From positions 103,273 through 167,272 of the IMG/VR virus record IMGVR_UViG_3300032272_000001: a DNA stretch of 64,000 nt. One strand, given 5' to 3'. Shown piece after piece: positions 6,697 to 31,252 of this stretch. Source of the stretch: a virus. Its lineage: Duplodnaviria > Heunggongvirae > Uroviricota > Caudoviricetes. Within the stretch, counting starts at the first letter, position 1. Every line of letters starts with the position of its first letter. A program made the translations under genes and the position numbers. The notes under the pieces were generated by a model. That model searched no databases, was not told the origin of the DNA, and saw only the letters and a program-made list of their open reading frames with translations.

Positions 6697-7014
6697 TTAT
6701 GCGGTTAGATGATTGGTAGTAACCAAAACAACGCGTTCAAAACCATCATGAACTATAATTGAAAAATTAGTATATGTTTTTACCCAACAAACACGAAGAT
6801 CTTCTGTACCGATATCTGTTAGATTTGGATCATATCTAATTTTAGCAATACGATATGCTTCGGTATAATTTTCATCTATAACAGCTTGAGCTATATCACC
6901 ATCAAGACACATTCCAGGTATATCGTCACGTGTAGACCATCCAATACCATATCCAGGAGAATATACAATAGCTGTATAACCATTTTTAATTAACTTATTC
7001 ATTTTTTCCTTCAC
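6697..7014 (-). CDS. hypothetical protein
   Basis: 105 aa. Confidence 0.5.
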   Translation of the reverse strand: MKEKMNKLIKNGYTAIVYSPGYGIGWSTRDDIPGMCLDGDIAQAVIDENYTEAYRIAKIRYDPNLTDIGTEDLRVCWVKTYTNFSIIVHDGFERVVLVTTNHLTA

Positions 7015-7751
7015 TTAATTACTTTATTTAATTCTTGTAATGTTCTAATAATGATTAAAGTTTCATCACCTAATTTAGTACCACCTCTTGTCCTAGTCCA
7101 ATGTTCAATTGCTTCTGGGACTGTGAAATACCTGCAACCAGCAATGATTCTATCAATACCATCTTTATCAGGTACAAGAATAAATTCATATCTATCTGAT
7201 CTTTTAATTTGTGGAAACGGTTTTGATACTCTTACATCACCAGATACTACAGCATTACCAGATACTAGAGCATTACCATATACTCTAGCATAGCCAAATA
7301 CTTTAGCATTATCATATACTTTTGCATCCCCATATACTCCAGCATTATCACATACTACAGCATTATCACATACTTTAGCATTACCATATACTACAGCATC
7401 ATCAAATACTTCAGCATCACCAAATACTTGAGCATTGCCAGCTACTACAGCATTATCATATACTCTAGCATCACCATATACTAGAGCATCACCAGATACT
7501 TCAGTATCATCATATACTTGAGCATCACCAAATACTTCAGCATCATCATATACTCTTGTATTACCAAATACTCTAGCATCGCCATATACTCTAGCATCGC
7601 CATATACTCTTGCATTACCAAATACTTTAGCATTATCACATACTTTAGCATTAGGTCCAATATAAGCAGTATCTTCTACATATGCAGTATCTGCAACAAG
7701 ACCACCACCATTGGTATGTTTATGAAATCCTGACATTGTGTGTTCCTTCAC
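7011..7751 (-). CDS. Hexapeptide-repeat family paralog (246 aa) with conserved C-terminal domain
   Basis: N-term MSGFHKHTNGGGLVADTAYV, about 25 V-x-[GD]-[ND]-A-x repeats, C-term SKPFPQIKRSDRYEFILVPDKDGIDRIIAGCRYFTVPEAIEHWT. Confidence 0.75.
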   Translation of the reverse strand: MKEHTMSGFHKHTNGGGLVADTAYVEDTAYIGPNAKVCDNAKVFGNARVYGDARVYGDARVFGNTRVYDDAEVFGDAQVYDDTEVSGDALVYGDARVYDNAVVAGNAQVFGDAEVFDDAVVYGNAKVCDNAVVCDNAGVYGDAKVYDNAKVFGYARVYGNALVSGNAVVSGDVRVSKPFPQIKRSDRYEFILVPDKDGIDRIIAGCRYFTVPEAIEHWTRTRGGTKLGDETLIIIRTLQELNKVIK

Positions 7752-8254
7752 TTAATTACTTTATTTAATTCTTGTAATGTTCTAATAATGATTAAAGTCT
7801 CATTGCATAAACTAGTTCCATATCTTGTTTTTGTCCAATGTTCAATTGCTTCTTCGATACTAAAATACCTGCAACCAACAATGATTCTATCAATACCATT
7901 TTTATCTGGCACAAGAATAAATTCATATCTATCTGATCTTTTAATTTGTGGAAATGGTTTTGATACTCTTGCATCACCATATACTAGAGCATTACCAGAT
8001 ACTACAGCATTATCATATACTTTTGCATCACCATATACTTCAGCATCATCATATACTCTTGCATAACCAAATACTTGAGCATTACCAGATACATGAGCAT
8101 TACCATATACGCTAGCATCACCAGACACTTTAGCATAACCAGACACTTTAGCATTAGGTCCAATATAAGCAGTATCTGCAACAGTTGCAGTATCTGCAAC
8201 AAGACCACCACCATTGGAGTGTCTATGAAATCCTGACATATTATTTTCCTTCAC
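7748..8254 (-). CDS. Hexapeptide-repeat family paralog (168 aa)
   Basis: Same N- and C-terminal modules with fewer repeats. Start overlaps the upstream stop. Confidence 0.75.
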   Translation of the reverse strand: MKENNMSGFHRHSNGGGLVADTATVADTAYIGPNAKVSGYAKVSGDASVYGNAHVSGNAQVFGYARVYDDAEVYGDAKVYDNAVVSGNALVYGDARVSKPFPQIKRSDRYEFILVPDKNGIDRIIVGCRYFSIEEAIEHWTKTRYGTSLCNETLIIIRTLQELNKVIK

Positions 8255-8742
8255 TTAATTTCTTTATTTAATTCTTGTAATGTTCTAATAATTTTTAAGG
8301 TTTCGGTTCCTAGTTTAGTTCCGTATCTTGTTTTTGTCCAATGTTCAATTGCTTCTGGGACTGTAAAGTATCTGCAACCAGCAATTATTCTATCAATACC
8401 ATCTTTATCTGGTACAAGAATAAAATCATATCCATCTGATCTTTTAATTTGTGGAAACGGTTTTGATACTTTAACATCACCATATACACTTACATCACCA
8501 GATACTTTAACATGACCAGATACTCTAGCATTACCATATACATGAGCATTACCAGATATTACAGCTTTACCAAATACTTTAGCATAACCAAATACTAGAG
8601 CATTACCATATACTCTTGCATTACCAAATACTTTAGCATAACCAAATACTTTAGCATCTGGTCCAATAAAAGCAGTATCTTCTACATATGCAGTATCTGC
8701 AACAAGACCACCACCATTGATATGTTTATGAAATCCTGACAT
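8251..8742 (-). CDS. Hexapeptide-repeat family paralog (163 aa)
   Basis: Same architecture. Confidence 0.75.
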   Translation of the reverse strand: MSGFHKHINGGGLVADTAYVEDTAFIGPDAKVFGYAKVFGNARVYGNALVFGYAKVFGKAVISGNAHVYGNARVSGHVKVSGDVSVYGDVKVSKPFPQIKRSDGYDFILVPDKDGIDRIIAGCRYFTVPEAIEHWTKTRYGTKLGTETLKIIRTLQELNKEIK

Positions 8743-8743
8743 A

Positions 8744-8914
8744 TTATTTTCCTTTACTTAATTTTTTGACACAAGAATCATGAGAGGCGCTATACCATTC
8801 ATGTCCCATTTTTTCACATCTCTGACCAAATGTAGCACCACTAGCCAAAATACCAACAAGTAAAATAATAGATAATACCAAAAAAATCACAAATGTTTTA
8901 TAAATTCTATTCAT
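8744..8914 (-). CDS. small membrane protein (likely start at the internal Met at 8914; a longer ORF runs to 8986)
   Basis: TM helix FVIFLVLSIILLVGILASGA. The start at 8914 sits 5 nt after the upstream gene's stop. Confidence 0.4.
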   Translation of the reverse strand: MNRIYKTFVIFLVLSIILLVGILASGATFGQRCEKMGHEWYSASHDSCVKKLSKGK

Positions 8915-9293
8915 GACTACTCCAAACATAATCAGAGACAATAAATCCATAAAATTCAAAATCATCACCAACTTCTTTATATTCATTTATTGTTGCAATA
9001 CCATATGGAATTATTGCAAATTGACATGGCATATCATATAATGACATAAATTCTTTTCCATTAAAATTATCCATAAAAACAAATTCCCCAATCAGATCAT
9101 AATTATGATCCAACCTAAGATTTGTTACTGTTGCACAACGAGTATCATATTGACTAATTGTTTCGAAATAGATAAACAAATTATTATTAATAATCTTATC
9201 ATAAACATCAAAACCAAGAAAATGGTTCTTTCGATAGATTAAACCACCAGTTGTGGAAGATGGTTTATTCAACTCAATTTTAAATTTAGTCAT
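8907..9293 (-). CDS. hypothetical protein
   Basis: 128 aa. Confidence 0.5.
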   Translation of the reverse strand: MTKFKIELNKPSSTTGGLIYRKNHFLGFDVYDKIINNNLFIYFETISQYDTRCATVTNLRLDHNYDLIGEFVFMDNFNGKEFMSLYDMPCQFAIIPYGIATINEYKEVGDDFEFYGFIVSDYVWSSHE

Positions 9294-9480
9294 ATTATTT
9301 CTCCATTAATGTGGTTGATTTGAGTAGGAGTCGAACCTACAATAATCTCATTACGTCGCGCTGTTTGAGATACAGTAGGTTTCACCATGAGCGCGGAAAC
9401 TATTGATTTCGCAATAATCCCATCCATATCGGCTTAGCCCACACTGCTATTTACCAATTTCAGCATCAAATCATATTTAA

Positions 9481-10236
9481 TTATTTTTCCTTAAAATGTG
9501 CTTCTACCATATCCAACCATAATAGAGATTGTTGAGATAATTTAGATCCATCTCCACGCCTATGATTAGTCCAATATTTCCTAGCTTCTAAAATATTTTT
9601 TACTACACAACCAGCATATATTTTAATACCATCATCATTTTTCTGTGCAATATGCTGATAACCGTCTGTTCGTGTCATAATAGGACCAATATTTGTACGA
9701 TAATTACCATCCAAATCATTAAATTTTGTTGATTTTAAATCAGCATTATTAAAATTAGCACTACTTAAATAACAGAAGTTAAATACACAATTCCTCAGAT
9801 CACAATCACTAAAATTAGTTTTGTACATTCCAACATCTATGAATCTACTATCCGAAAAAGAACTACCAGTAAAATCAATAAAATCTAAACACTTATACTT
9901 AAATTTACAATTAAAAAAAATACATTTTTGTGAATTCTGATCAAAAATAATATCAGACAAATCTTTATTAACAAATTCAAGCTGTTGACCTTTAGTATTA
10001 TCATCAAGCCATAGTAGATGTTTTTTGTATTTCTTATCGTATTTCTTCTGAGTAATCTTTTTCATGTTATAATCCTTGGTAACTTCGTAGTAATTTCGTA
10101 GTAACTGAGTAATCTTTTTCATGTTATAATCCTTGGTAATTTCGTAGTAACTTCGTAGTAACTTCGTAGTAACTTCGTAGTAACTTCGTATGTGTTGTAT
10201 TAAACCTAGTGTATATGGATATGCGCGTGTGGTCAA
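9481..10236 (-). CDS. Pentapeptide-repeat protein fused to the same C-terminal domain as the hexapeptide family; its N-terminal region carries internal tandem repeats
   Basis: Central A(D/N)(L/F)xx repeats (CKFKY KCLDF IDFTG SSFSD SRFID ... NADLK STKFN). C-term RTDGYQHIAQKNDDGIKIYAGCVV..EARKYWTNHRRGDGSKL aligns with the family's C-terminal domain. N-terminal start is uncertain. Confidence 0.6.
   Translation of the reverse strand: MTTRAYPYTLGLIQHIRSYYEVTTKLLRSYYEITKDYNMKKITQLLRNYYEVTKDYNMKKITQKKYDKKYKKHLLWLDDNTKGQQLEFVNKDLSDIIFDQNSQKCIFFNCKFKYKCLDFIDFTGSSFSDSRFIDVGMYKTNFSDCDLRNCVFNFCYLSSANFNNADLKSTKFNDLDGNYRTNIGPIMTRTDGYQHIAQKNDDGIKIYAGCVVKNILEARKYWTNHRRGDGSKLSQQSLLWLDMVEAHFKEK
10046..10200. 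repeat. Tandem DNA repeats (about 56-bp duplication plus 10-bp unit cttcgtagta x5) inside the 5' end of the pentapeptide-protein gene
   Basis: gtaatctttttcatgttataatccttggtaa occurs twice; acttcgtagta is iterated. Confidence 0.7.
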
Positions 10237-10237
10237 G

Positions 10238-10327
10238 AAAAAAAAATAAAAAAAAATTACATAGAGACAAGGCTTCTATAGCAGTAGTATAAAAAATAAA
10301 AAAAAATTACATAGAGACAAGGCTTCT
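10238..10327. repeat. Direct repeat (A-rich, about 38 bp x2: aaaaaaataaaaaaaaattacatagagacaaggcttct)
   Basis: Two copies at 10238..10277 and 10291..10327. Confidence 0.65.
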
Positions 10328-12508: not shown

Positions 12509-13018
12509 TTACCGACAGCTATAGATTAGGCGATCGCCCCCAATCGTTGTTTCGATATAATCACAACTCAAATCAGCCGCAATCGCGTCATAATCGATAT
12601 AATTGGCTAAATGTTCTGGAATATCGCCGAATAGACCATTATCAACCAATTCCTCTGCAAGATCGCGCATACTAGAGCAATGATAGATATCAACTTCAAA
12701 ATCTGATTCAGGATCAACCGAATCAGCATCAAAAGGATAGGAACACTCGCCAACCGCAATAATAAAGATGGTTTTCTCATGATCGGACCATGATACCTCA
12801 CAGTCAATATATTTTTCGATATTGGCCTGATTAATGCCCCATGCTTCCGACAATTCACAATCAATGGTTTCGCCGTCAATAAAATCAATTTCAAATTCTT
12901 CCACCTTGTCGCCATGGCTATTCCGCGCTTTGGACGCCTTTTCTGTGTATTCTTCGAACGTTTCGAAGTAGAATCCAGTGGCAGAAATATCATAAGGATT
13001 TGCGAAAAATTTGGACAT
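12509..13018 (-). CDS. Acidic protein, putative ArdA-like antirestriction (DNA-mimic) protein
   Basis: 169 aa and very acidic. C-terminal NYIDYDAIAADLSCDYIETTIGGDRLIY resembles the ArdA C-terminal motif (nY.DyeA.arDL...) as I recall it. Not verified by search. Confidence 0.4.
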   Translation of the reverse strand: MSKFFANPYDISATGFYFETFEEYTEKASKARNSHGDKVEEFEIDFIDGETIDCELSEAWGINQANIEKYIDCEVSWSDHEKTIFIIAVGECSYPFDADSVDPESDFEVDIYHCSSMRDLAEELVDNGLFGDIPEHLANYIDYDAIAADLSCDYIETTIGGDRLIYSCR

Positions 13019-15689: not shown

Positions 15690-15717
15690 TTGACATCACT
15701 CTAGAATCCACTATGAT
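15690..15717 (+). promoter_or_regulatory. Early promoter module (TTGACA-N16-TATGAT), first of a repeated series on the + strand
   Basis: ttgacatcactctagaatccactatgat followed by a conserved leader (ccagatatcagataacaaagggaacataatATG). Confidence 0.55.
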
Positions 15718-15747: not shown

Positions 15748-16168
15748 ATGTCAGAATTTCATAAACACTCCAATGGTGGTGGATTAGTAGAGTCTACTGC
15801 AACAGTATCTGATACTGCTTTTATTGGACCTAATGTTATAGTATGTGATAATGCAAGAGTATCTGGTACTGCTCTAGTATGTGATAATGCAAGAGTATCT
15901 GATGATGTTCTAGTATTTGGTGATGCAAGAGTATCTGATGATATTAAAGTATATGATAATGCTATAGTATCTGATGATGTTCTAGTATTTGGTGATGCAA
16001 GAGTATCTGGTCATGCAAAAGTATTTGGTGATGCTAAAGTAGCTGGCTATGCTATAGTATGATAATGCAAGAGTATCTATTGGACAGAAACGAGATATGG
16101 AACTAAATTAGGTGATGAAACACTTGAAATTATTTCTATGCTACAGAAATTAAAGTCAATTATGGATT
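15748..16168 (+). pseudogene. Decayed hexapeptide-family copy: intact N-terminus and 104 codons, then in-frame TGA TAA, then the last 26 codons of the C-terminal domain in the same frame (an internal deletion)
   Basis: gtatgataatgc here versus gtatgtgataatgc in intact copies (2-bp loss). The segment encoding SKPFP...EAIEH is missing and the sequence resumes at YWTETRYGTKLGDETLEIISMLQKLKSIMD*. Confidence 0.6.
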
Positions 16169-16194
16169 GACATCCCTCTAGAATCCACTATGAT
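16167..16194 (+). promoter_or_regulatory. Early promoter module
   Basis: ttgacatccctctagaatccactatgat. Confidence 0.55.
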
Positions 16195-16225: not shown

Positions 16226-16897
16226 ATGACAAAATTTCATAGACACTCCAATGGTGGTGGTCTTGTTGCAGATACTGCAAGAGTATCTGATACTGCTTTT
16301 ATTGGACCTAATGCAAGAGTATTTGGTAATGCTGAAGTATATGGTAATGCTATAGTATTTGGTAATGCTGTAATATCTGGTGATGCTGTAGTATATGGTA
16401 ATGCTAAAGTGTCTGGTAATGCTAGAGTATACAACAATGCTAAAGTATCTGATGATGCTAGAGTATACAGCAATGCTAAAGTATATGGTAATGCTAGAGT
16501 ATGTGATAATGCTGTAGTATGTGATAATGCTATAGTATCTGGTGATGCAAGAGTATATGGTGATGCAAGAGTATTTGATAATGCTGTAGTATGTGATAAT
16601 GCTTCAGTATCTGATGATGCTATAGTATGTGATCATGCAAGAGTATTTGGTGATGCAAAAGTATTTGGTGATGCTCTAGTATCAAAACCATTTCCAAAAA
16701 TCACCAGATCAGATAGATATGATTTTATTCTTGTGCCAGATAAAGATGGAGTCGATAGAATCATTGCTGGTTGCAGGTATTTTAGTATCGAAGAAGCAAT
16801 TGAACATTGGACAGAAACAAGAGGTGGAACTAAACTAGGAACCGAAACCTTAAAAATTATTGATATGTTACAAGAATTAAAGTCAATTATTGATTGA
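16226..16897 (+). CDS. Hexapeptide-repeat family paralog (223 aa)
   Basis: Conserved N/C modules and about 21 repeats. Confidence 0.75.
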   Translation: MTKFHRHSNGGGLVADTARVSDTAFIGPNARVFGNAEVYGNAIVFGNAVISGDAVVYGNAKVSGNARVYNNAKVSDDARVYSNAKVYGNARVCDNAVVCDNAIVSGDARVYGDARVFDNAVVCDNASVSDDAIVCDHARVFGDAKVFGDALVSKPFPKITRSDRYDFILVPDKDGVDRIIAGCRYFSIEEAIEHWTETRGGTKLGTETLKIIDMLQELKSIID

Positions 16898-16921
16898 CAA
16901 CACCATAGATTGGTGTATGAT
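16894..16921 (+). promoter_or_regulatory. Early promoter module (overlaps the stop codon of the upstream gene)
   Basis: ttgacaacaccatagattggtgtatgat. Confidence 0.55.
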
Positions 16922-16951: not shown

Positions 16952-17533
16952 ATGTCAGAATTTCATAGACACTCCAATGGTGGTGGATTAGTAGAGTCTA
17001 CTGCTAGTGTTGCTGATACTGCTTATATTGGACCTAATGCTGTAGTAGCTGGTAATGCTGTAGTAGAGGGCAATGCTATAGTAGATGGCAATGCTAAAGT
17101 ATTTGATAATGCTAGAGTAACTGGTCATGCTCTAGTATCTGGTAATGCTCAAATATTTGGTAATGCTCAATTATATGGTTATGCTATGGTATATGGTGAT
17201 GCTAAAGTATTTGATAAGGTTATAGTATCTGGTACTGCAAGAGTATTTGGTGATGCTGAAGTATATGATAATGCTGTAGTATCTGGTGATGCTGTAGTAT
17301 CTGGTGATGCTCTAGTATCAAAACCGTTTCCAAAAATTACTAGATCAGATGGATATGATTTTATTCTTGTACCAGATAAAGATGGTATTGATGTAATAAT
17401 TGCTGGTTGCAGATACTTTAGTATCGAAGAAGCAATTGAACATTGGACAGAAACAAGATATGGAACTAAATTAGGTGATGAAACTATGTTGATTATTGAA
17501 ACATTGCAGAAATTAAAGTCAATTATGGATTGA
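16952..17533 (+). CDS. Hexapeptide-repeat family paralog (193 aa)
   Basis: Same architecture. Confidence 0.75.
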   Translation: MSEFHRHSNGGGLVESTASVADTAYIGPNAVVAGNAVVEGNAIVDGNAKVFDNARVTGHALVSGNAQIFGNAQLYGYAMVYGDAKVFDKVIVSGTARVFGDAEVYDNAVVSGDAVVSGDALVSKPFPKITRSDGYDFILVPDKDGIDVIIAGCRYFSIEEAIEHWTETRYGTKLGDETMLIIETLQKLKSIMD

Positions 17534-17557
17534 CAACACCATAGATTGCTGTATGAT
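17530..17557 (+). promoter_or_regulatory. Early promoter module
   Basis: ttgacaacaccatagattgctgtatgat. Confidence 0.55.
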
Positions 17558-17585: not shown

Positions 17586-18221
17586 ATGTCAGGATTTCAT
17601 AGACATCCAAATGGTGGTGGTCTAGTAGAGTCTACTGCATATGTAGAAGATACTGCTTTTATTGGACCAGATGCTAGAGTAACTGGTGATGCTGAAGTAA
17701 CTGGTAATGCTCAAGTATTTGGTAATGCAAGAGTATCTGGTAATGCTAAAGTATTTGATAAGGTTATGGTATATGGTCATGCTTTAGTATCTGGTAATGC
17801 TATGGTATATGGTCATGCTTTAGTATCTGGTAATGCTATGATATCTGATAATGCTGAAGTATTTGATGATGCTAGAGTATATGGCTATGCTCATGTATTT
17901 GGTAATGCTCAAATATTTGGTAATGCTGTAATATTTGGTAATGTAAAAGTAGCTGGTAAAGCTGTAATATCTGGTAATGCAAGAGTATATGGTAATGCTG
18001 TAGTATCAAAACCATTTCCACGCATTCCTAGATCAGATGGATATGATTTTATTCTTGTACCTGATAAAGATGGTATTGATAGAATCATTGCTGGATGTAG
18101 ATATTTCACAGTCCCAGAAGCAATTGAACATTGGACAGAAACGAGATATGGAACCAAATTAGGAAGCGAGACTATGTTGATTATTGAAACATTGCAGAAA
18201 TTAAAGTCAATTATTGATTGA
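17586..18221 (+). CDS. Hexapeptide-repeat family paralog (211 aa)
   Basis: Same architecture. Confidence 0.75.
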   Translation: MSGFHRHPNGGGLVESTAYVEDTAFIGPDARVTGDAEVTGNAQVFGNARVSGNAKVFDKVMVYGHALVSGNAMVYGHALVSGNAMISDNAEVFDDARVYGYAHVFGNAQIFGNAVIFGNVKVAGKAVISGNARVYGNAVVSKPFPRIPRSDGYDFILVPDKDGIDRIIAGCRYFTVPEAIEHWTETRYGTKLGSETMLIIETLQKLKSIID

Positions 18222-18521: not shown

Positions 18522-19103
18522 ATGTCAGAATTTCATAAACATCCTAATGGTGGTGGATTAGTAGAGTCTACTGCAACAGTATCTGATACTGCTTATATTG
18601 GTCCTAATGCTGTAGTAGCTGGTAATGCTGCGGTACTTGGTAATGCTATAGTATCTAATAATGCTATAGTATCTAATAATGCAAGAGTATCTAATAATGC
18701 TCAAGTATATGGCGATGCTAAAGTGTCTGGTAATGCTCAAGTATTTGATAATGCTGAAGTATATGGTGATGCTCAAGTATTTGATAAGGTTATGGTATAT
18801 GGTACTGCTAGAGTATATGATAATGCTGTAGTATCTGGTAAAGCTGTAATATCTGGTGATGCTGTAGTATCTGGTGATGCTGTAGTATCAAAACCGTTTC
18901 CAAAAATTACTAGATCAGATGGATATGATTTTATTATTGTACCTGATTTATCTGGTAGTGATAGAATCATTGCTGGCTGTAGATATTTTAGTATCGAAGA
19001 AGCAATTGAACATTGGACAGAAACAAGATATGGAACTAAACTAGGCGATGAAACACTTGAAATTATTTCTATGCTACAGAAATTAAAGTCAATTATGGAT
19101 TGA
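18522..19103 (+). CDS. Hexapeptide-repeat family paralog (193 aa)
   Basis: Only a truncated upstream module survives here (ttgacataatATG). Confidence 0.75.
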   Translation: MSEFHKHPNGGGLVESTATVSDTAYIGPNAVVAGNAAVLGNAIVSNNAIVSNNARVSNNAQVYGDAKVSGNAQVFDNAEVYGDAQVFDKVMVYGTARVYDNAVVSGKAVISGDAVVSGDAVVSKPFPKITRSDGYDFIIVPDLSGSDRIIAGCRYFSIEEAIEHWTETRYGTKLGDETLEIISMLQKLKSIMD

Positions 19104-19566: not shown

Positions 19567-19622
19567 TTGACATACATATAGAATCTGATATGATCCAGAT
19601 ATAGAAACAAAGGGAACATAAT

Positions 19623-20420
19623 ATGTCAGAATTTCATAAACATATCAATGGTGGTGGATTAGTAGAGTCTACTGCAACAGTTGCAGTATCTGCTTATATT
19701 GGACCTAATGCTAAAGTATTTGGTAATGCTAAAGTGTTTGGTTATGCTCTAGTATGTGATTATGCTGTAATATCTGGTGATGCTGTAATATCTGGTTATG
19801 CTAAAGTATATGATAATGCTGTAATATCTGGTGATGCTGTAGTATGTGATAATGCTAGAGTATCTGGCTATGCTCAAATATTTGGTAATGCTCAAGTATA
19901 TGGTAATGCTCTAGCATTTGATAAGGTTATGGTATATGGTGATGCAAGAGTATTTGGTAATGCTCAAGTATATGATGATGCTAGAGTATACAGCAATGCT
20001 AGAGTATCTGGTGATGCAAGAGTATTTGGTGATGCTGTAGTATTTGATAATGCTCTAGTATTTGATAAGGTTATGGTATATGGTACTGCAAGAGTATATG
20101 GTGATGCAAAAGTATATGATAATGCTATAGTAACTGGTAATGCTATAGTAACTGGTAATGCTATAGTATATGGCAATGTTCAAGTATCTGGTGATGCTAG
20201 AGTATCAAAACCATTTCCACAAATTAAAAGATCAGATAGATATGATTTCATTCTTGTGCCAGATAAAAATGGTACTGAAATAATAATTGCTGGTTGCAGA
20301 TACTTTACAGTTCCAGAAGCTATTGAACATTGGACAGAAACAAGAGGTGGAACCAAATTAGGTGATGAGACTATGCTGATTATCGAAACATTGCAGAAAT
20401 TAAAGTCAATTATTGATTGA
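19623..20420 (+). CDS. Hexapeptide-repeat family paralog (265 aa, the longest)
   Basis: About 28 repeats; promoter module at 19567..19594. Confidence 0.75.
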   Translation: MSEFHKHINGGGLVESTATVAVSAYIGPNAKVFGNAKVFGYALVCDYAVISGDAVISGYAKVYDNAVISGDAVVCDNARVSGYAQIFGNAQVYGNALAFDKVMVYGDARVFGNAQVYDDARVYSNARVSGDARVFGDAVVFDNALVFDKVMVYGTARVYGDAKVYDNAIVTGNAIVTGNAIVYGNVQVSGDARVSKPFPQIKRSDRYDFILVPDKNGTEIIIAGCRYFTVPEAIEHWTETRGGTKLGDETMLIIETLQKLKSIID

Positions 20421-22375: not shown

Positions 22376-22443
22376 AGTAATTATTGATTGACAACACCAT
22401 AGATTGTTATATGATAAAGATATAGAAACAAAAGGAACATGAT

Positions 22444-23025
22444 ATGTCAGAATTTCATAAACACTCCAATGGTGGTGGATTAGTAGAGTCTACTGCAACA
22501 GTATCTGATACTGCTTATATTGGACCTAATGCTAGAGTATCTGGCTATGCTCAAGTATTTGGTAATGCTAGAGTATCTGGTTATGCTAGAGTATTTGGTA
22601 ATGCTCTAGTATTTGGTAATGCTATAGTATCTGATGATGCTGTAGTATCTGGTACTGCTAGAGTATATGGTGATGCTCAAGTATATGATGATGCTATAGT
22701 ATGTGATGATGCAAGAGTATATGGTTATGCTGTAATATCTGGTTGTGCTCAAGTATATGGTAATGCTGTAATATCTGGCAATGCTAGAGTATATGGTGAT
22801 GCAAGAGTATCAAAACCGTTTCCACAAATTAAAAGATCAGATAGCTATGATTTTATTCTTGTACCAGATAAAGATGGTATTGATGTAATAATTGCTGGAT
22901 GTAGATATTTCACAGTCACAGCAGCAATTGGACATTGGACAGAAACAAGAGGTGGAACCAAATTAGGTGATGAAACCTTAAAAATTATTGATATGTTACA
23001 AGAATTAAAGTCAATTATGGATTGA
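22444..23025 (+). CDS. Hexapeptide-repeat family paralog (193 aa)
   Basis: Same architecture; promoter module at about 22387. Confidence 0.75.
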   Translation: MSEFHKHSNGGGLVESTATVSDTAYIGPNARVSGYAQVFGNARVSGYARVFGNALVFGNAIVSDDAVVSGTARVYGDAQVYDDAIVCDDARVYGYAVISGCAQVYGNAVISGNARVYGDARVSKPFPQIKRSDSYDFILVPDKDGIDVIIAGCRYFTVTAAIGHWTETRGGTKLGDETLKIIDMLQELKSIMD

Positions 23026-23080
23026 CAACACCATAGATTGCTGTATGATACAAGATATCAGATAACAAAGGAATGATACA

Positions 23081-23806
23081 ATGTCAGAATTTCATAACCA
23101 CTCCAATGGTGGTGGTCTTGTTGCAGATACTGCAAGAGTATCTGATACTGCTTATATTGGTCCATCTGCTAGAGTATTTGATAATGCTGTAGTATGTGAT
23201 AATGCTAAAGTATATGGTAATGCTGTAGTATTTGATTATGCTAAAGTATTTGATTATGCTAAAGTATATGGTAATGCTAAAGTATATGGTAATGCTGAAG
23301 TATTTGGTAATGCTCTAGTATGTGGTAATGCTGTAGTATATGGTAATGCTGTAGTATATGATAATGCTCAAGTATGTGATCATGTAAGAGTATCTGGTCA
23401 TGCAAGAGTATATGGTAATGCTGTAGTATACAGCAATGCTGCATTATCTGATAATGCTCTAGTATTTGGTAATGCTCAAGTATGTGATCATGCTAGAGTA
23501 TATGGTAATGCTATAGTATGTGATAATGCAAGAGTATTTGATAATGCAAGAGTATCTGGTAATGCTGTAGTATCTGGTGATGTAAGAGTATCAAAACCAT
23601 TTCCACAAATTAAAAGATCAGATAGATATGATTTTATTCTTGTGCCAGATAAAAATGGAGTCGATAGAATCATTGCTGGTTGCAGGTATTTCACAGTCCC
23701 AGAAGCAATTGGACATTGGACAAAAACAAGATATGGAACTAAATTAGGTGATGAAACACTTGAAATTATTTCTATGCTACAGAAATTAAAGTCAATTATG
23801 GATTGA
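23081..23806 (+). CDS. Hexapeptide-repeat family paralog (241 aa)
   Basis: Same architecture; promoter module at about 23024. Confidence 0.75.
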   Translation: MSEFHNHSNGGGLVADTARVSDTAYIGPSARVFDNAVVCDNAKVYGNAVVFDYAKVFDYAKVYGNAKVYGNAEVFGNALVCGNAVVYGNAVVYDNAQVCDHVRVSGHARVYGNAVVYSNAALSDNALVFGNAQVCDHARVYGNAIVCDNARVFDNARVSGNAVVSGDVRVSKPFPQIKRSDRYDFILVPDKNGVDRIIAGCRYFTVPEAIGHWTKTRYGTKLGDETLEIISMLQKLKSIMD

Positions 23807-25017: not shown

Positions 25018-25035
25018 TAACCAAAGGAATATATT

Positions 25036-25467: not shown

Positions 25468-25487
25468 AAAACAAATGGACCATTCAA

Positions 25488-25745
25488 ATGACGAAACATG
25501 TTGATATTGAGGTTGAATTTGATGTGGATGTTGAAGCGGTAGACGATTTCGTGCGTTTTGCGGCGAATTGTAGGATTTTCGCGAAAGTTCATCGAATTCA
25601 CGGTTCCGAAATTCCTGTTGTCACGTTGCGCGCATCGCCCGAAAAATTGATTGACTTTTCGATAAACGTTTGGCGTGTTAATGCCGATGGCGACAAATCG
25701 CGCGCAGTAGATTTTTGCGCGATACATCCGCTTCGATCCCGTTAG
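25488..25745 (+). CDS. hypothetical protein inside the repeat-bracketed GC-richer cassette
   Basis: 85 aa. The local GC is clearly higher than in the flanks (many gcgcg/cgcc runs). Confidence 0.45.
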   Translation: MTKHVDIEVEFDVDVEAVDDFVRFAANCRIFAKVHRIHGSEIPVVTLRASPEKLIDFSINVWRVNADGDKSRAVDFCAIHPLRSR

Positions 25746-25920
25746 TGGAAGCGCAAAAGTATTTTAATCACAAAAGAAATGGTCCGTGTGACTGTTTCTT
25801 TTAAAAGGACCAAAGTCTAATTGGAGGGAAGACCTCTAGAAAAGTATCTAAGCAGAGATAGGTTTAAAACTTGAATCACATCCATGATTGAAACTTATTT
25901 TTGTTGCAATGTCTTTCCAT

Positions 25921-25977
25921 TTTAGACAAATACACTTGACATACATGTAGATTCATCTAAGATATAATTATCAAAAC
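25921..25977 (+). repeat. 57-bp perfect direct repeat, copy 2 (promoter for 25991..26359)
   Basis: Identical to 25411..25467. Confidence 0.8.
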
Positions 25978-25990
25978 AGAGGAACATACA

Positions 25991-26359
25991 ATGTACACAG
26001 TAATGACAGCAAAAACACCAACACAACGCCGCAATGCAGTAAATCTATCAAATGCTTCTGGTAATGTTAGACGATCATTAGCATTTAAAGATGAAGGTTT
26101 AAATGGGCCGATTGAATCTGAATTGAATAAAGGTGGATTGGTTTCTGCTATTAAAGAAGCATTAGAAACTAATCGCGTTAAGCGAGTATCTATTGCTATT
26201 GTTGATACTGATATCGGCACGGCGGTTTGGGTTTCTCCATTGAATATGGACCAATCATATAAAGTCGATTTTGTTATGGATTATATTGGTTTTAAAACAC
26301 CAAACGGATTTCATTGGTATCTGTTAGATGATATGAAAAAAGAAGGGTTTTCGCTATGA
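25991..26359 (+). CDS. hypothetical protein
   Basis: 122 aa. Confidence 0.5.
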   Translation: MYTVMTAKTPTQRRNAVNLSNASGNVRRSLAFKDEGLNGPIESELNKGGLVSAIKEALETNRVKRVSIAIVDTDIGTAVWVSPLNMDQSYKVDFVMDYIGFKTPNGFHWYLLDDMKKEGFSL

Positions 26360-26547
26360 ACGAATCATTTGAATTAGAAAGGAAGATTGACGAACTATGG
26401 TTTGCAGCAAATATTCATAGTTTGGAAATGATGGGTGAATTTGTTGATCATGAAATTGATCATGGAACAGAAAAAGTACCAGATCGACCAAAAGATAAAA
26501 TCGAAACGATTCAAAAAATCATTCAATATCTAAAGGAATCTATCTAA
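26356..26547 (+). CDS. hypothetical small protein
   Basis: 63 aa; ATGA overlap. Confidence 0.45.
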   Translation: MNESFELERKIDELWFAANIHSLEMMGEFVDHEIDHGTEKVPDRPKDKIETIQKIIQYLKESI

Positions 26548-26762
26548 TGGGTAAAATTTCAGAAAATTGTGCAGACGATATCATTAGAACAAGTGTGGGA
26601 ACAACCAACATTCCACATCCTAGTAAAGACGGCATGAGAATTGTTGGTTGGGTTGTTCCTGAAAAGGAAGCTCAGCTTAGCGTTGGTTTAATCGCCCTAG
26701 ATGATATTGCAGAATGTTGGAAAAAATCAAGAAAACCAAAATATTTTAGAGACAATTATTGA
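26547..26762 (+). CDS. hypothetical small protein
   Basis: 71 aa. Confidence 0.45.
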   Translation: MGKISENCADDIIRTSVGTTNIPHPSKDGMRIVGWVVPEKEAQLSVGLIALDDIAECWKKSRKPKYFRDNY

Positions 26763-26834
26763 TTGACAACACCATTATGTATAACAAACTTCCTGCTAAA
26801 GGCGCTCCACTTTAATCCAATTTATGGAAAGATC

Positions 26835-27044
26835 ATGACAAAAAAAGTTTATTTAGTAGATACATCATATGGTCAAACTATCAGATGCTATGATGAAAAA
26901 AATCATTACGAACAATGTTGTTATGAAATTGGTAATGAAAACATTGTTCGTATTAGTTTGGCAACTATAGCTGATATATCTTGGACTATAGCTATGGGAG
27001 GAAGAGTCCCAATAGAAGCACAAAAAATGTATGATGAAAGATAA
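26835..27044 (+). CDS. hypothetical small protein (start at internal Met, after the promoter module at 26763)
   Basis: MTKKVYLVDTSYGQTIRCYDEKNHYEQCCYEIG... Confidence 0.45.
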   Translation: MTKKVYLVDTSYGQTIRCYDEKNHYEQCCYEIGNENIVRISLATIADISWTIAMGGRVPIEAQKMYDER

Positions 27045-27056
27045 CAGGAAAATAAA

Positions 27057-27236
27057 ATGATCAAGAGTGTTGCTTATATCACATATATTGTGGTATATCT
27101 TTTAGTTATGTTATCGTCTAATTGGTTTTACGAATTTGATTCTGAGGCGGTAACGATTAGATTATCTGTGTTTTGTGGTATTTTACTTGGTATAATTGTG
27201 GCAGAATATATTAATTGGGTTTTAAAACATGATTGA
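27057..27236 (+). CDS. small membrane protein (59 aa, under the track cutoff)
   Basis: Manual translation MIKSVAYITYIVVYLLVMLSSNWFYEFDSEAVTIRLSVFCGILLGIIVAEYINWVLKHD. Confidence 0.4.
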   Translation: MIKSVAYITYIVVYLLVMLSSNWFYEFDSEAVTIRLSVFCGILLGIIVAEYINWVLKHD

Positions 27237-27432
27237 TGCTGCTACAGTAGAGTTTAAGGATCATTTATTGGTTGTTTCTTTTTATAAGAGCGGACCAATA
27301 AATGATATTAAATGTGAACCGTTCGCATATGAATTGGACGATGTTGATGTGACATATAAACATCTAAAAGAAAAATTTGGTCGAGAATATATCAATGAAG
27401 TTATTGATGATGCCATTTATTATCTTGATTGA
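27229..27432 (+). CDS. hypothetical small protein
   Basis: 67 aa. Confidence 0.45.
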   Translation: MIDAATVEFKDHLLVVSFYKSGPINDIKCEPFAYELDDVDVTYKHLKEKFGREYINEVIDDAIYYLD

Positions 27433-27448
27433 TTGAAAGGAACATAAT

Positions 27449-28192
27449 ATGATAGGATTTCATAAACATCCAAATGGTGGTGGTCTAGTAGAGTCTACTG
27501 CAACTGTTGCAGATACTGCTTTTATTGGACCAGATGCTGTAGTATCTGGTAATGCTCAAGTATATGATAATGCTCAAGTATTTGGTGATGCTCAAGTATT
27601 TGGTGATGCTCTAGTATCTGGTAATGCTAGAGTATCTGGCTATGCTAGAATATATGATACTGCTCTAGTATCTGGTACTGCTCTAGTATCTGGCTATGCT
27701 AGAATATATGGTAATGCTGTAGTATCTGGTACTGCTCTAGTATATGGCAATGCTATAGTATCTAATAATGCAAGAGTGACTGGTGATGCTGTAGTATGTG
27801 GTGATGCTCAAGTATATGATAATGCTCAAGTATCTGGTGATGCTATAGTATATGGTTATGCTCATGTATTTGGTGATGCTAGAGTATCTGGTAATGTAAG
27901 AGTATCTGGTGATGCTCAAGTATTTGGTAATGCTATGGTATTTGGTAATGCTAGAGTAGCTGGTAATGCTGTAGTATCAAAACCATTTCCAAAAATTACT
28001 AGATCAGATAGCTATGATTTTATTCTTGTACCTGATAAAGATGGTATTGATAGAATCATTGCTGGTTGCAGATATTTCACGGTTCCAGAAGCAATTGGAC
28101 ATTGGACTAGGACAAGAGGTGGTACTAAATTAGGAACCGAAACCTTAAAAATTATTGATATGTTACAAGAATTAAAGTCAATTATTGATTGA
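27449..28192 (+). CDS. Hexapeptide-repeat family paralog (247 aa)
   Basis: Same architecture. Confidence 0.75.
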   Translation: MIGFHKHPNGGGLVESTATVADTAFIGPDAVVSGNAQVYDNAQVFGDAQVFGDALVSGNARVSGYARIYDTALVSGTALVSGYARIYGNAVVSGTALVYGNAIVSNNARVTGDAVVCGDAQVYDNAQVSGDAIVYGYAHVFGDARVSGNVRVSGDAQVFGNAMVFGNARVAGNAVVSKPFPKITRSDSYDFILVPDKDGIDRIIAGCRYFTVPEAIGHWTRTRGGTKLGTETLKIIDMLQELKSIID

Positions 28193-28240
28193 CAAGAAAC
28201 CACAATATAGTATGATCAAGACATCAGAACAAAGGATATC

Positions 28241-28925: not shown

Positions 28926-29006
28926 GGAAGAGATGGCAAATGGGGAGCCCCACAGCTCATAACTGTGTGTTTAAAAACCGAGTTGGTTCGATTCCGACCT
29001 CTTCTA
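28926..29006 (+). tRNA. Probable tRNA-Met/fMet (CAT) with an unusually long (about 14 nt) variable region; CCA encoded
   Basis: Acceptor ggaagag/ctcttct, anticodon arm cacag-ctCATaa-ctgtg, T-arm gttgg-ttcgatt-ccgac, then a-cca. The variable-loop length is atypical. Confidence 0.5.
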
Positions 29007-29013
29007 CCATTAT

Positions 29014-29086
29014 AGTTCCATAGCTCAGCGGAAAGAGCAATTGTCTTCTAAACAATAGGTCGTAGGTTCAAATCCTACTGGAACTA
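29014..29086 (+). tRNA. tRNA-Arg (anticodon TCT); CCA encoded
   Basis: Acceptor agttcca/tggaact, D-arm gctcagcggaaagagc, anticodon arm attgt-ctTCTaa-acaat, T-arm gtagg-ttcaaat-cctac, discriminator a, then cca. Confidence 0.75.
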
Positions 29087-29108
29087 CCAAACAACAAAGG
29101 AACATATC

Positions 29109-29501: not shown

Positions 29502-29513
29502 AATTATTATTAT

Positions 29514-29688
29514 GAGACACTTTTTTAATTTTATGGTTATGTTTATGTTGTTTTTTATTATGTGCATAGTGATAAGTATGCACACCACAATCAATAATCA
29601 TATTAATACGCTAAAGAATGATAAGATGACTATGCAAGAAATAAATGAAGAAGAGCAAGAAAAAGCTCTTGCAAAGAAAGTTGAATAA
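29514..29688 (+). CDS. small membrane protein (57 aa, under the track cutoff)
   Basis: Manual translation MRHFFNFMVMFMLFFIMCIVISMHTTINNHINTLKNDKMTMQEINEEEQEKALAKKVE. Confidence 0.35.
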
Positions 29689-29785
29689 ATGAAACCAGAA
29701 CCAATTACATTATATGAAGTGTTGTTTTGGATAACATTAATTATTCTTGCTGGTTTATATGCTTTTACAAGAACAGGAACATAAT

Positions 29786-30493
29786 ATGATAGGATTTCAT
29801 AAACATCCAAATGGTGGTGGTCTAGTAGAGTCTACTGCAACTGTTGCAGATACTGCTTTTATTGGACCTAATGCTAGAGTATATGGTAATGCTCAAGTAT
29901 TAGGTTATGCTCAAGTATCTGGCAATGCTAAAGTATTTGATAATGCTAGAGTATTTGATAATGCTGTAATATTTGGTGATGCTCAAGTATGTGATCATGC
30001 AAGAGTATATGGCAATGCTGTAGTACATGGTGATGCTCTAGTATATGTTAATGCTATAGTATGTGATCATGCAAGAGTATCTGGTAATACTCATGTATAT
30101 GGTAATGCTCATGTGTATGATAATGCTGCATTATCTGATAATGCTCTAGTATATGGAAATGCTCAAGTATGTGATAATGCAAGAGTATATGATAATGCTC
30201 AAGTATTTGGTGATGCTATAGTATGTGATAATGCAAGAGTATCTGGTAATGCAAGAGTATATGGTAATGCTGTAGTGTCAAAACCATTTCCAAAAATCAC
30301 TAGATCAGATAGATATGATTTCATTCTTGTACCTGATAAAGATGGTATTGATAGAATCATTGCTGGTTGTAGATATTTTACAGTTCCAGAAGCTATTGAA
30401 CATTGGACAAAAACAAGATATGGAACTAGTTTAGGCAATGAGACTTTAATCATTATTAGAACATTACAAGAATTAAAGTCAATTATGGATTGA
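29786..30493 (+). CDS. Hexapeptide-repeat family paralog (236 aa, counted from the conserved MIGFHKHPNGGG start)
   Basis: The track ORF begins upstream at 29747. The conserved family N-terminus and RBS point to 29786. Confidence 0.75.
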   Translation: MIGFHKHPNGGGLVESTATVADTAFIGPNARVYGNAQVLGYAQVSGNAKVFDNARVFDNAVIFGDAQVCDHARVYGNAVVHGDALVYVNAIVCDHARVSGNTHVYGNAHVYDNAALSDNALVYGNAQVCDNARVYDNAQVFGDAIVCDNARVSGNARVYGNAVVSKPFPKITRSDRYDFILVPDKDGIDRIIAGCRYFTVPEAIEHWTKTRYGTSLGNETLIIIRTLQELKSIMD

Positions 30494-30544
30494 CAGCAAC
30501 ATAGATTGCTGTCAATCCATATATAGAAACAAAGGGAACATAAT

Positions 30545-31252
30545 ATGACAGAATTTCATAAACATCCTAATGGTGGTGGATTAGTAGAATCTACTGCTAG
30601 TGTTGCTGATACTGCTTTTATTGGAATTAATGCTAGAGTATATGGTAATGCTAGAGTATCTGGTGATGCTATAGTATCTGGCTATGCTCAAATATTTGGT
30701 GATACTAGAGTATATGGTGATGCTAAAGTATGTGATCATGCAAGAGTATATGGAAATGCTAAAGTATGTGATAATGCTATAGTATATGGTCATGCTCATG
30801 TATATGATAATGCTGTAGTATCTGGTTATGCTGTAGTATCTGGTTATGCTCAAGTATCTGATGATGCTCAAGTATTTGGTCATTCTAGCGTATCTGGTAA
30901 TGCTCTAGTATTTGGTCATTCTAGAGTATATGATGATGCAAGAGTATCTGGTACTGCTCTAGTATCTGGTACTGCTCTAGTATATGGTGATGCAAGAGTA
31001 TCTGGTGATGTAAGTGTATATGGTGATGCTAAAGTATCAAAACCGTTTCCACAAATTAAAAGATCAGATGGATATGATTTTATTATTGTACCAGAGTTAT
31101 CAGGTAATGATAGAATAATTGCTGGTTGCAGATATTTCACAGTCCCAGAAGCTATTGAACATTGGACAGAAACAAGAGGTGGAACCAAATTAGGTGATGA
31201 GACTATGCTGATTATCGAAACACTTCAACGAATGAAAGAGATTTATGGATGA
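30545..31252 (+). CDS. Hexapeptide-repeat family paralog (235 aa)
   Basis: Same architecture; C-term ends ...LQRMKEIYG. Promoter module at about 30490. Confidence 0.75.
   Translation: MTEFHKHPNGGGLVESTASVADTAFIGINARVYGNARVSGDAIVSGYAQIFGDTRVYGDAKVCDHARVYGNAKVCDNAIVYGHAHVYDNAVVSGYAVVSGYAQVSDDAQVFGHSSVSGNALVFGHSRVYDDARVSGTALVSGTALVYGDARVSGDVSVYGDAKVSKPFPQIKRSDGYDFIIVPELSGNDRIIAGCRYFTVPEAIEHWTETRGGTKLGDETMLIIETLQRMKEIYG

Follow-up and report, generated by a model that had tools for sequence, protein, structure and literature searches.

A tandem family of hexad-repeat proteins with a common C-terminal domain in the early region of a T4-like phage

Why does a single phage carry thirteen intact versions of one small repeat-rod gene, and which part of the encoded protein is held constant? 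The question is raised by a T4-like phage contig of 176,125 bp from a metagenome, of which we analysed a stretch of 64,000 nucleotides, hereafter called the window. Here, the 13 intact paralogues, together with a decayed copy and a relative built on pentapeptide repeats, have a combined footprint of 9.5 kb, or 5.4% of the contig. We tentatively explain the whole as a lineage-specific family of small cytoplasmic early proteins that was amplified in tandem and then diverged, and give this explanation a little less than an even chance.

A hexad rod between a short leader and a common tail

An HMM of the C-terminal domain (the tail) detects exactly 14 tails and no further one across the whole window; E values of the 13 copies run from 1e-40 to 1e-42. 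The pentapeptide relative was included when the HMM was built, and its own HMM score is thus non-independent. On the minus strand, c03 (8251..8742) and c02 (7748..8239), each of 163 aa with 13 hexads and identical to database proteins P0003 and P0004, respectively, are followed by c01 (7011..7736; 241 aa, 26 hexads; tail E 9e-42). Both c02 and c01 directly abut the preceding copy, so that the three look like an operon. The plus strand carries c04 (16226..16897; 223 aa, 23 hexads), c05 (16952..17533; 193 aa, 18 hexads), c06 (17586..18221; 211 aa, 21 hexads), c07 (18522..19103; 193 aa, 18 hexads), the longest copy c08 (19623..20420; 265 aa, 30 hexads), c09 (22444..23025; 193 aa, 18 hexads), c10 (23081..23806; 241 aa, 26 hexads), c11 (27449..28192; 247 aa, 27 hexads), c12 (29786..30493; 235 aa, 25 hexads) and c13 (30545..31252; 235 aa, 25 hexads), whose tail is the most diverged of all copies.

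An earlier note on this DNA had listed the same 13 genes, all of which are present at the positions it gave, together with a decayed copy and a pentapeptide-type member, both of which we also find; its wording of the leader motif and of the tail consensus matches ours as well. Its protein lengths need partial correction. Counted from the conserved ATG, the copies measure 163 (two), 193 (three), 211, 223, 235 (two), 241 (two), 247 and 265 aa. The listed values of 168, 246 and 236 aa are not reproduced in this way, although the others are; those of 168 and 246 aa correspond to ORFs beginning at upstream GTG codons. Length differences that had been described as mostly multiples of 6 aa are indeed multiples of 6, and without exception among the intact copies.

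Each intact protein consists of a 16-aa leader, a run of 13–30 hexads whose register is never broken, and a tail of 71 aa. The leader (H.H.NGGG.V..TA.V) is conserved in distant relatives too. The rod is built of YdcK-type hexads (x-A-x-V/I-x-G/D) without insertions, which match Pfam PF18836 (YdcK beta-solenoid) at 73–93 bits against a cut-off of 30. The earlier note had proposed a beta-solenoid and structure prediction as a check on it, and a full-length AF2 model of c05 as a monomer shows solenoid-like repeats with strict six-residue strand periodicity (pLDDT 70–83) and a confident tail. These scores and this periodicity establish the hexads as a beta-solenoid repeat.

Two readings take the rod itself to be the active part. 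One is that the proteins are hexapeptide acyltransferases or enzymes of the gamma-carbonic-anhydrase type. Pfam Hexapep is reached slightly above its cut-off (33.1 and 28.2 versus 27 bits), and there are weak NCBIfam matches to LpxA, LpxD, GlmU, CysE, PaaY and gamma-CA. However, these family scores of 13–34 bits fall far under cut-offs of 150–718, the rods are uninterrupted consensus hexads without loop insertions or substrate-binding domains, and the tail is unlike any acyltransferase C-terminal domain, so this reading is largely refuted and highly improbable. The other takes them for a bactofilin-like polymer scaffold, whose filaments would organise sites of replication or assembly and whose rod length would set lattice properties. 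Indeed, c08 reaches the Pfam Bactofilin cut-off (30.0 versus 27.9 bits) and relatives in GenBank bear the annotation ‘polymer-forming cytoskeletal protein’, but c04 and c03 stay below that cut-off (21.4 and 18.3 bits) and PF18836 scores far higher. A conserved, non-repeat leader and globular tail at the two ends of the solenoid would be expected to oppose open-ended stacking, and a filament would need no thirteen variants. A scaffold role is therefore quite unlikely.

Duplication, exchange and upkeep of the copies

Repeat arrays invite the suspicion that one or a few genes were mis-assembled as many. The contig comes from a short-read metagenome assembly (a k141 contig), and a second contig of this phage, assembled independently from a different run, stops precisely at the c01 boundary, a place where assemblers evidently struggle. 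Several observations nevertheless make an artefact extremely improbable. Nucleotide identity between tails is 73–89% with no identical pair, the longest exact repeat between copies (94 nt) is shorter than the final k used by the assembler (141), copies are set apart by two tRNAs and by unique genes, and each copy keeps an intact reading frame and exact hexad register. With copies this diverged and repeats this short, the array is real and not a collapsed repeat gene, an outcome that the earlier note had said would make the family ordinary.

The unit of duplication can be read from the promoters. A sigma-70-type box, TTGACA-N16-TATGAT, lies upstream of the decayed copy (15690..15717, plus strand, as are all boxes given here), c04 (16167..16194), c05 (16894..16921), c06 (17530..17557), c08 (19567..19594), c09 (22388..22415) and c10 (23022..23049). 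The −35 element of the c04 box shares bases with the stop codon that ends the decayed copy (GAT TGA CA), and those of c05, c06 and c10 overlap the stop codons of c04, c05 and c09, respectively. The duplication unit is thus a whole promoter–leader–gene cassette, with its −35 box overlapping the stop codon of the previous copy. The earlier view that each gene of the family is served by an early promoter of its own holds for six of the 13 intact copies and fails for the other seven: the box is absent upstream of c03, c07, c11, c12 and c13, and c01 and c02 abut their neighbours. At the would-be promoter site of c13, a perfect 17-bp inverted repeat (30484..30521) is found, with TTGACA kept and the −10 box absent. 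Promoters of this type stand in front of many unrelated genes nearby as well, and such boxes are spread all through the region, that is, an early-type setting.

Change within the array proceeds in several ways. Rod length shifts in whole hexads. The decayed copy (15748..16165, plus strand) retains the leader, about 14 hexads and the last 28 tail codons, with a 2-nt frameshift near 16060 and an internal deletion. The leaders of c11 and c12 are 99% identical in nucleotide sequence and their tails only 86%, and the tail blocks QIK/KIT and TVPE/SIEE occur in all four combinations. Because leader and tail identity matrices disagree and every block combination is present, the copies are mosaics whose segments were exchanged by recombination.

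The copies are also old, diverged and individually maintained (tail dS about 0.45). The earlier note had proposed dN/dS per domain as a check, and values of 0.33 for the tail and 0.40 for the leader indicate purifying selection; the tail is under such selection. A candidate signal of positive selection on hexad surfaces (pN/pS above 1) vanished under a register-shift control and proved to be a repeat artefact, and the diversifying selection predicted by an arms-race model is therefore unsupported. Local tails share 70–90% protein identity with one another and at most 63% with outsiders. This phage holds 14 tails, whereas 32 other loci have a single one each in the sequence fetched for them. 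Expansion to 14 copies is peculiar to this phage. Selection, whether for dosage or for a set of variants, would have driven the gene amplification behind it.

The tail domain and its carriers

The tail is a domain of 65–70 residues with an alpha/beta fold, four strands followed by two helices, which AF2 models with a pLDDT of 96 when given the tail only. Searches of curated domain libraries gave no match to the tail, none of the solved structures searched matched it (YdcK included, if in that library), and sequence and structure searches together detected no relative of known function. The earlier note had asked whether the domain belongs to a well-characterised family such as an acyltransferase tail; profile and structure searches found no such family, and the tail matches none of the acyltransferase C-terminal domains. 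It had also looked to marine T4-like phages for relatives, but neither this phage nor that group has the tail to itself. An exhaustive search places the family in 618 clusters at 50% identity, and its carriers include siphoviruses, prophages of Alphaproteobacteria and other T4-like phages. The tail is almost always C-terminal, and in BFVD the same fold stands C-terminal on phage solenoid proteins (TMq 0.7–0.87). Among 119 representatives, 57 carry it on pentapeptide repeats and 33 on YdcK hexads.

One such pentapeptide-repeat protein lies in the window (9481..10122, minus strand; 213 aa, P0121; pI 9.1). Its diverged tail is related to the family in pairwise BLASTP, which is independent of the HMM (E 5e-10), and is 39% identical to the tail of c04. 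The architecture of the ‘pentapeptide chimera’ described earlier is real. With a tail only 39% identical to local tails and roughly equidistant from all tails elsewhere, the protein is an old, independent lineage and no product of local recombination.

That one tail joins two kinds of solenoid elsewhere agrees with the earlier description, in which a solenoid of variable length presents a constant module. What is conserved and selectable in the family is the tail, which would bind a conserved ligand or a macromolecule of host or phage. The solenoid would serve as an interchangeable rigid spacer of about 2–5 nm, probably oligomerising, with variable surface residues. Invariant residues R9, D11, Y13, C31, R32, H42, W43 and R47 and a GGT loop point to a specific site and to more than a cap, although capping the solenoid or mediating oligomerisation could be the main job of the tail. 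Alternatively, the tail may be a nucleic-acid binder, a small beta4-alpha module that binds single strands like those of PC4, PUR or Whirly, with which the proteins would coat or tether ssDNA or RNA early in infection; we judge this unlikely.

The prevalence of pentapeptide carriers bears on a different alternative, in which the solenoid imitates a DNA duplex and the tail helps it to dimerise or dock. The pentapeptide-repeat proteins Qnr and MfpA mimic DNA for gyrase, and ArdA and Ocr do so for restriction enzymes. The class on which the tail is most often found is hence one that holds known DNA mimics, the pentapeptide relative in the window has weak Qnr and MfpA HMM matches, and the distance to an ArdA gene is 2.4 kb. 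However, those matches reach 21–36 bits, far under cut-offs of 240–500, and that relative is basic (+9). The hexad solenoids carry a net charge of just −0.6 to −7.8 per 100 aa, c03 being net positive, and left-handed hexapeptide helices are not known to act as DNA mimics. With charge so weak and inconsistent across copies, the mimic idea of the earlier note is unsupported and DNA mimicry is improbable.

Genomic setting and known systems

The array shares its early block with a homologue of Tad6-type Thoeris inhibitors (4045..4731, minus strand; PF25188, E 7e-37) and with the ArdA antirestriction homologue (12509..13018, minus strand; PF07275, 35.5 bits, cut-off 27), neither of which belongs to the family; most genes in the surrounding early region are unknown. 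In other T4-like phages, relatives lie near gp32/gp59 or rIIA/rIIB. Neighbours at other loci include Lar restriction alleviation (twice), DUF932 (three times), RecT/Rad52/SSB and NADAR with NMNAT-NUDIX, and prophage homologues adjoin repressor and integrase genes or recombination genes, with no neighbour conserved across the compared loci.

Tail fibres and spikes often contain beta-helical rods, and rods of variable length are typical of fibres. Together with weak PHROG matches to tail fibre (E 0.002) and tail proteins (E 0.0009), this would agree with virion or fibre accessory proteins whose variable copies alter host range. However, the genes occupy an early region with sigma-70-type promoters and the structural module begins only at about 43 kb, the proteins are small (163–265 aa), and the prophage homologues keep the non-structural company just described, all of which makes a virion role very unlikely. 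The proteins would do their work at an early stage of infection, taking over the host or countering its defences. The earlier note had suggested such roles, and the presence of Tad6 and ArdA in the same early region strengthens the context for them; counter-defence or host takeover is our best guess, by guilt by association. ArdA and Tad6 are also small early proteins, but have no sequence or fold kinship with the family, and their association with it is positional only.

YdcK of Escherichia coli and Salmonella shares the PF18836 hexad repeat with the window proteins, and its N-terminal region has counterparts in the tail-bearing relatives P0014, P0097 and P0041. The window proteins differ in their short leader, in reaching 48 bits against a cut-off of 350 for the NCBIfam YdcK equivalog, and in their C-terminal tail without a solved-structure match. 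Pentapeptide-repeat proteins such as the gyrase-protecting DNA mimics Qnr, MfpA and AlbG are likewise small cytoplasmic repeat rods, and it is on pentapeptide solenoids that the tail most often occurs. Pentapeptide and hexad helices nevertheless differ in geometry, and the window hexad proteins have the other repeat type, are insufficiently acidic and do not reach the Qnr and MfpA HMM cut-offs; Qnr and MfpA are not known to have a tail of this kind. Bactofilins (PF04519) resemble the family in their short beta-helical repeat core and give borderline HMM matches, but the scores are inconsistent and mostly below cut-off, and the window proteins have capped termini.

Among phages, Lactobacillus phage LfeInf (Herelleviridae) encodes at least four YdcK-type hexad proteins, three of them in tandem, and Streptococcus phages (Sfi19 orf229 and Javan prophages) encode others, in both cases in non-structural regions; unlike the family described here, these lack the tail domain and occur in far fewer copies. 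No homing endonuclease was found linked to the array. Amplification of anti-defence loci has been documented experimentally in T-even phages (PMC13096335), and such segmental amplification (SegB, PMC13096335), like the ‘gene accordions’ of poxviruses, also multiplies cassettes in tandem against host immunity. Amplified copies of that sort are recent, almost identical to one another and unstable, whereas the copies in this phage have aged and diverged and are maintained one by one.

A gene family of leader, hexad rod and tail

ORF listing and translation of the window yield 13 intact paralogues at the positions where the earlier note had seen an expanded family of solenoid proteins. The family itself is thereby confirmed, with corrections to its protein lengths, its promoters and the status of a pentapeptide 'chimera'. 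The copies, numbered by position, run from c01 (7011–7736) to c13 (30545–31252), with c01–c03 on the minus strand and c04–c13 on the plus strand. Every copy comprises a 16-residue leader (M-[ST]-[EG]-F-H-[KR]-H-x-N-G-G-G-L-V-[AE]-[DS]), 13–30 hexads in perfect register and a 71-residue tail beginning SKPFP. Counted from the conserved ATG, the proteins measure 163, 163, 193 (three copies), 211, 223, 235 (two), 241 (two), 247 and 265 residues, such that all length differences, and not just most as first described, are exact multiples of six.

A tail profile search finds exactly 14 tails in the 64 kb: those of the 13 copies, all C-terminal (E = 1e-40 to 1e-42), and that of a pentapeptide relative, a 213-residue protein encoded at 9481–10122 (minus strand), which gives a pairwise BLASTP E value of 5e-10. 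A fifteenth copy, at 15748–16165, is decayed, with a 2-nt frameshift plus an internal deletion; of its tail, only the last 28 codons remain. The family takes up 9.5 kb (5.4%) of the 176,125-bp source contig, and no further copies occur in the 7.7 kb to the left of the window.

An array mis-built by the assembler from one or a few genes was rejected on copy divergence and repeat lengths. Tail nucleotide identity among the copies is 73–89%, with no identical pair, and the longest exact repeat common to any two copies (94 nt) is shorter than 141, the last k used in assembly. Between the copies lie unique genes and two tRNAs. A contig of the same phage from another sequencing run ends at the edge of the first copy, indicating that short-read assemblers struggle at the array.

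Profile matches assign the rod to a known repeat family, the YdcK beta-solenoid repeat (PF18836, Pfam gathering cut-off 30 bits), with scores of 73.4 bits for c04, 93.3 for c08 and 43.3 for the decayed copy; the shortest copy, c03, falls just under the cut-off (28.5 bits). Of 270 hexads, 93% have Ala at position 2, 99% have V or I at position 4 and 91% have G or D at position 6, with positions 1, 3 and 5 variable, and the hexad runs are uninterrupted, with zero indels across all copies. The full-length AlphaFold (AF2) monomer of c05 has two-residue strands every six residues (pLDDT 70–83), followed by a confidently predicted tail. A left-handed beta-helix has three hexads per turn and a rise of about 4.8 Å; by this general geometry, 13–30 hexads would form rods roughly 2–5 nm long.

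None of the full-length family models tested is matched at its cut-off. The matches that overlap PF18836, to Hexapep and Bactofilin, are weaker; for Bactofilin (PF04519, cut-off 27.9 bits) the scores are 30.0 for c08, 21.4 for c04 and 18.3 for c03, always far below those for PF18836. The YdcK equivalog NF040481 (NCBIfam) reaches 48.1 bits against a cut-off of 350. A hexapeptide acyltransferase or gamma-carbonic anhydrase is very unlikely: LpxA, LpxD, GlmU, CysE, PaaY and gamma-carbonic anhydrase models give at most 34 bits against cut-offs of 150–718, and only consensus hexads lie between leader and tail, without inserted loops or substrate-binding domains. Separately, a 93-residue ORF at 13741–14022 (minus strand) has an N-terminus, AIVRGNARVHRKVRGLGNVTVSNKAYFGPGP, that resembles a few degenerate hexads; this could be a distant or degraded family member that lacks the tail.

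The tail domain and its spread

The tail is an undescribed but widespread domain. By itself it has no match in Pfam, PHROGs, NCBIfam, PADLOC or PDB sequences, even as a 58-member profile; the sole recurring curated signal is a faint one to DUF7196 in 6 of the 58 tails (best E 0.03), and phrog_20532, of unknown function, spans the last hexads and the tail. No solved structure matching the tail was found. AlphaFold predicts it confidently as a compact domain. The tail family as defined here is recognised by the motifs R-S-D-G-Y, A-G-C-R-x-F and H-W-x-x-T-R-G-G-T-x-L-G-x-E. The conserved columns (R9, D11, Y13, F15, A29-G30-C31-R32, F34, H42-W43, T46-R47-G48-G49-T50, L52-G53 and E55) are mostly polar or aromatic and sit either in loops or where secondary-structure elements begin or end, a pattern more suggestive of a specific binding site than of a plain cap.

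A profile search run exhaustively over 1.84 billion representatives returned 618 tail clusters with E ≤ 1e-3, of which 275 have E ≤ 1e-10. The tail is nearly always C-terminal in proteins of 50–300 residues, with a median of 5 residues beyond it, and its scaffold among 119 representatives is most often pentapeptide repeats (57) or YdcK hexads (33). Structures in BFVD likewise place the fold at the end of both pentapeptide and hexapeptide proteins (TM-scores 0.7–0.87), from uncultured Caudovirales and from Bacillus, Listeria and Achromobacter phages. GenBank carriers are gp1 of EBPR siphovirus 2 and the 'pentapeptide repeat family protein' of Caulobacter phages GB2A, RW, RLK and KcrB. Matches in bacterial genomes are prophage-like and all from Alphaproteobacteria, in a search pattern that favours close relatives. 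Distant hexad-type relatives keep the leader as well (H.H.NGGG.V..TA.V). There is good support for regarding the tail as a conserved and autonomous functional module, carried by a rigid repeat rod that is interchangeable.

Stand-alone tails do not serve as proof of that autonomy. Although 14 of 251 tails appear to stand alone, this count is an overestimate, because one of the two that were checked, P0039 (65 residues; locus L031, 1681–2247), is a gene-calling truncation whose full ORF encodes leader, hexads and tail. Since gene-calling software apparently passes over the repeat region, short database entries of the family should be treated with caution. The other, P0001 (69 residues; within region 637–2710 of locus L032), looks like a true stand-alone tail; its gene begins 22 nt past a type IIG restriction-modification gene (HSDR_N_2, N6_Mtase, Eco57I), and a gene for an HTH protein comes next. 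In a Pseudolabrys sp. MAG, two loci 62 kb apart on one contig (L026 and L027) have identical listed ORFs over 2813–9548, including a 230-residue leader-hexad-tail gene, which suggests a duplicated prophage or element.

Divergence, exchange and promoters in the array

Each of 32 independent loci elsewhere has one tail gene within the sequence fetched, and relative to these the multi-copy expansion is specific to the source phage. Two of the 32 are other T4-like contigs, with the tail gene near gp32/gp59/ligase or rIIA/rIIB. The 13 local tails share 70–90% protein identity with one another and at most 63% with any outsider. Leader and tail are under purifying selection (dN/dS 0.40 and 0.33, respectively; tail dS about 0.45). 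Their identity matrices conflict, as in c11 and c12, whose leaders are 99% and tails 86% identical, and the tail blocks QIK/KIT and TVPE/SIEE occur in every one of their four possible pairings. These two patterns indicate recombination or gene conversion among copies.

Positive selection on the hexad surface was rejected. A first-pass pN/pS of 3–6 at hexad positions 1, 3 and 5 proved to be a repeat artefact, because shifting the register by 1–4 hexads leaves identity, pN and pS unchanged. Any hexad has about 75–79% DNA identity to any other; hexads are thus not alignable positionally between copies, which makes the values of 3–6 meaningless.

The pentapeptide relative matches PF00805 with 35.1 bits (cut-off 20.2), and its tail is about equally far from all other tails (39–46% identity). 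It therefore represents an old separate lineage, and the local chimeric origin first proposed for it is rejected. At the 5′ end of this gene (10048–10201), a 57-nt tandem duplication takes in the start region, and a run of about six 11-nt repeats (GTAACTTCGTA, plus strand) encodes the repeated 'YYEVT/LRSYYE' peptide in the long ORF. Just upstream, a 42-nt A-rich direct repeat occurs in two copies that are 95% identical (10236–10277 and 10286–10327). A second group of paralogues, a trio of small proteins of about 105 residues that are far more diverged, is interleaved with the solenoid genes at 14950–15267 (minus strand), 15288–15614 (minus strand) and 20705–21025 (plus strand); pairwise BLASTP gives E values of 4e-4 and 8e-5, and the two members scanned have no Pfam match.

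What was duplicated in the tandem runs is a whole cassette: promoter-like box, conserved leader, ribosome-binding site and gene. The box, TTGACA-N16-TATGAT, has a −35 element that overlaps the stop codon of the preceding copy (GAT TGA CA). It lies upstream of 6 of the 13 intact copies and of the decayed copy, and thus the proposal that every copy has its own promoter holds for those six and fails for the remaining intact copies. Fourteen promoter-like boxes that match at least 11 of the 12 consensus positions occur at 15690–28216 (plus strand; 17 kb), 12 of them being TTGACA-N16-TATGAT. Seven precede unrelated small genes (18218, 19100, 20417, 21250, 21898, 23803 and 28189), and several run into the stop codon of the gene before them. 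Because the same box stands before many unrelated neighbours, the whole block is promoter-dense and the family is not special in this respect. Upstream of c13, a perfect 17-bp inverted repeat (30484–30521) with TTGACA in both arms takes the place of the −10 part of the cassette. Directly after c10, a gene with its own promoter box encodes a 186-residue DUF7717 protein (23826–24386, plus strand; E 3e-18).

Genomic setting and possible function

Among the T4-core genes of the window are those for gp32 and for gp6/7/8-type baseplate wedge proteins, and no close DNA relative was found among deposited phages. Its gp6 has only about 34% identity to its best matches, all from phages of Alphaproteobacteria (Caulobacter Cr30, Sinorhizobium phiM12 and Pelagibacter HTVC008M), and the G+C content is about 33%. 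These findings make the phage a deep-branching T4-like myovirus, for which an alphaproteobacterial host is plausible. Genes for tRNA-Met (CAT) and tRNA-Arg (TCT) lie between c11 and c12 (28926–29089, plus strand). Just left of the window (locus L029, 1–3212), PrkA, DUF444 (YeaH-like) and SpoVR genes stand in a row upstream of gp32 and resemble a stress or starvation operon of host type that has been taken into the phage genome.

The early block of the family also encodes a homologue of the Tad6-type Thoeris inhibitor (4045–4731, minus strand; PF25188, E 7e-37) and one of the ArdA antirestriction protein (12509–13018, minus strand; PF07275, 35.5 bits, cut-off 27). At other loci, most genes within 3.5 kb of a tail gene have no known function; those identified include Lar restriction-alleviation proteins (two loci), DUF932 (three), RecT/Rad52/SSB, and NADAR with NMNAT-NUDIX (one locus). 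In three phage contigs that are unrelated in other respects (L004, 10625–11581; L007, 6147–7103; L021, 8020–9174), the DUF932 gene is no more than about 1.5 kb from the tail gene. Beyond DUF932, Lar and recombination genes, no gene neighbourhood is conserved across loci, and the family protein thus probably acts alone. PADLOC, which models defence systems, gives no match; the AntiDefenseFinder paper makes no mention of a pentapeptide, hexapeptide or solenoid family; and our literature search found no characterization of the solenoid-plus-tail architecture.

DNA mimicry, also put forward in the earlier note, was rejected on charge. The solenoids are mildly acidic (net charge −0.6 to −7.8 per 100 residues), with c03 at +3, and the pentapeptide relative carries a charge of +9 (pI 9.1); this lack of strong, consistent acidity argues against a mimic of the Ocr/ArdA/Qnr/MfpA class. 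Qnr and MfpA family HMMs score 21–36 bits against cut-offs of 240–500.

The best reading of the genomic context, at slightly less than even odds, is that these proteins work early in infection, in host takeover or counter-defence, and that the family became fixed once its gene had been amplified. A more ambitious reading, which we consider rather unlikely as a whole, is that a new ligand- or target-binding tail fold defines a widespread phage counter-defence (or host-takeover) family, with the solenoid as an interchangeable rigid oligomerizing ruler. The 13 length and surface variants and the pentapeptide relative would then be a standing panel against variants of one host system, a diverged and fixed 'gene accordion'.

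If the tail proves to be a binding or inhibitory module, many 'hypothetical' solenoid proteins would gain a function; current annotation frequently miscalls them acyltransferases, glycerol kinases or cytoskeletal proteins. The source phage offers a natural study case, as 13 diverged copies that make up about 5% of its genome have been maintained by selection beside known anti-defence genes, and single-copy homologues in culturable Caulobacter phages make the question directly testable.

The array of 13 copies plus the pentapeptide relative is unusual, and it is a clean example of an old, diverged gene amplification in a T4-like genome in which rod length varies by whole hexads. Amplification of anti-defence loci is documented in T-even phages (PMC13096335). 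Lactobacillus phage LfeInf (locus L033, 19021–23807) has at least four YdcK-type hexad genes, three of them in tandem beside RecA; unlike those of the source phage, all are without the tail, and they provide a modest precedent for clusters of solenoid genes.
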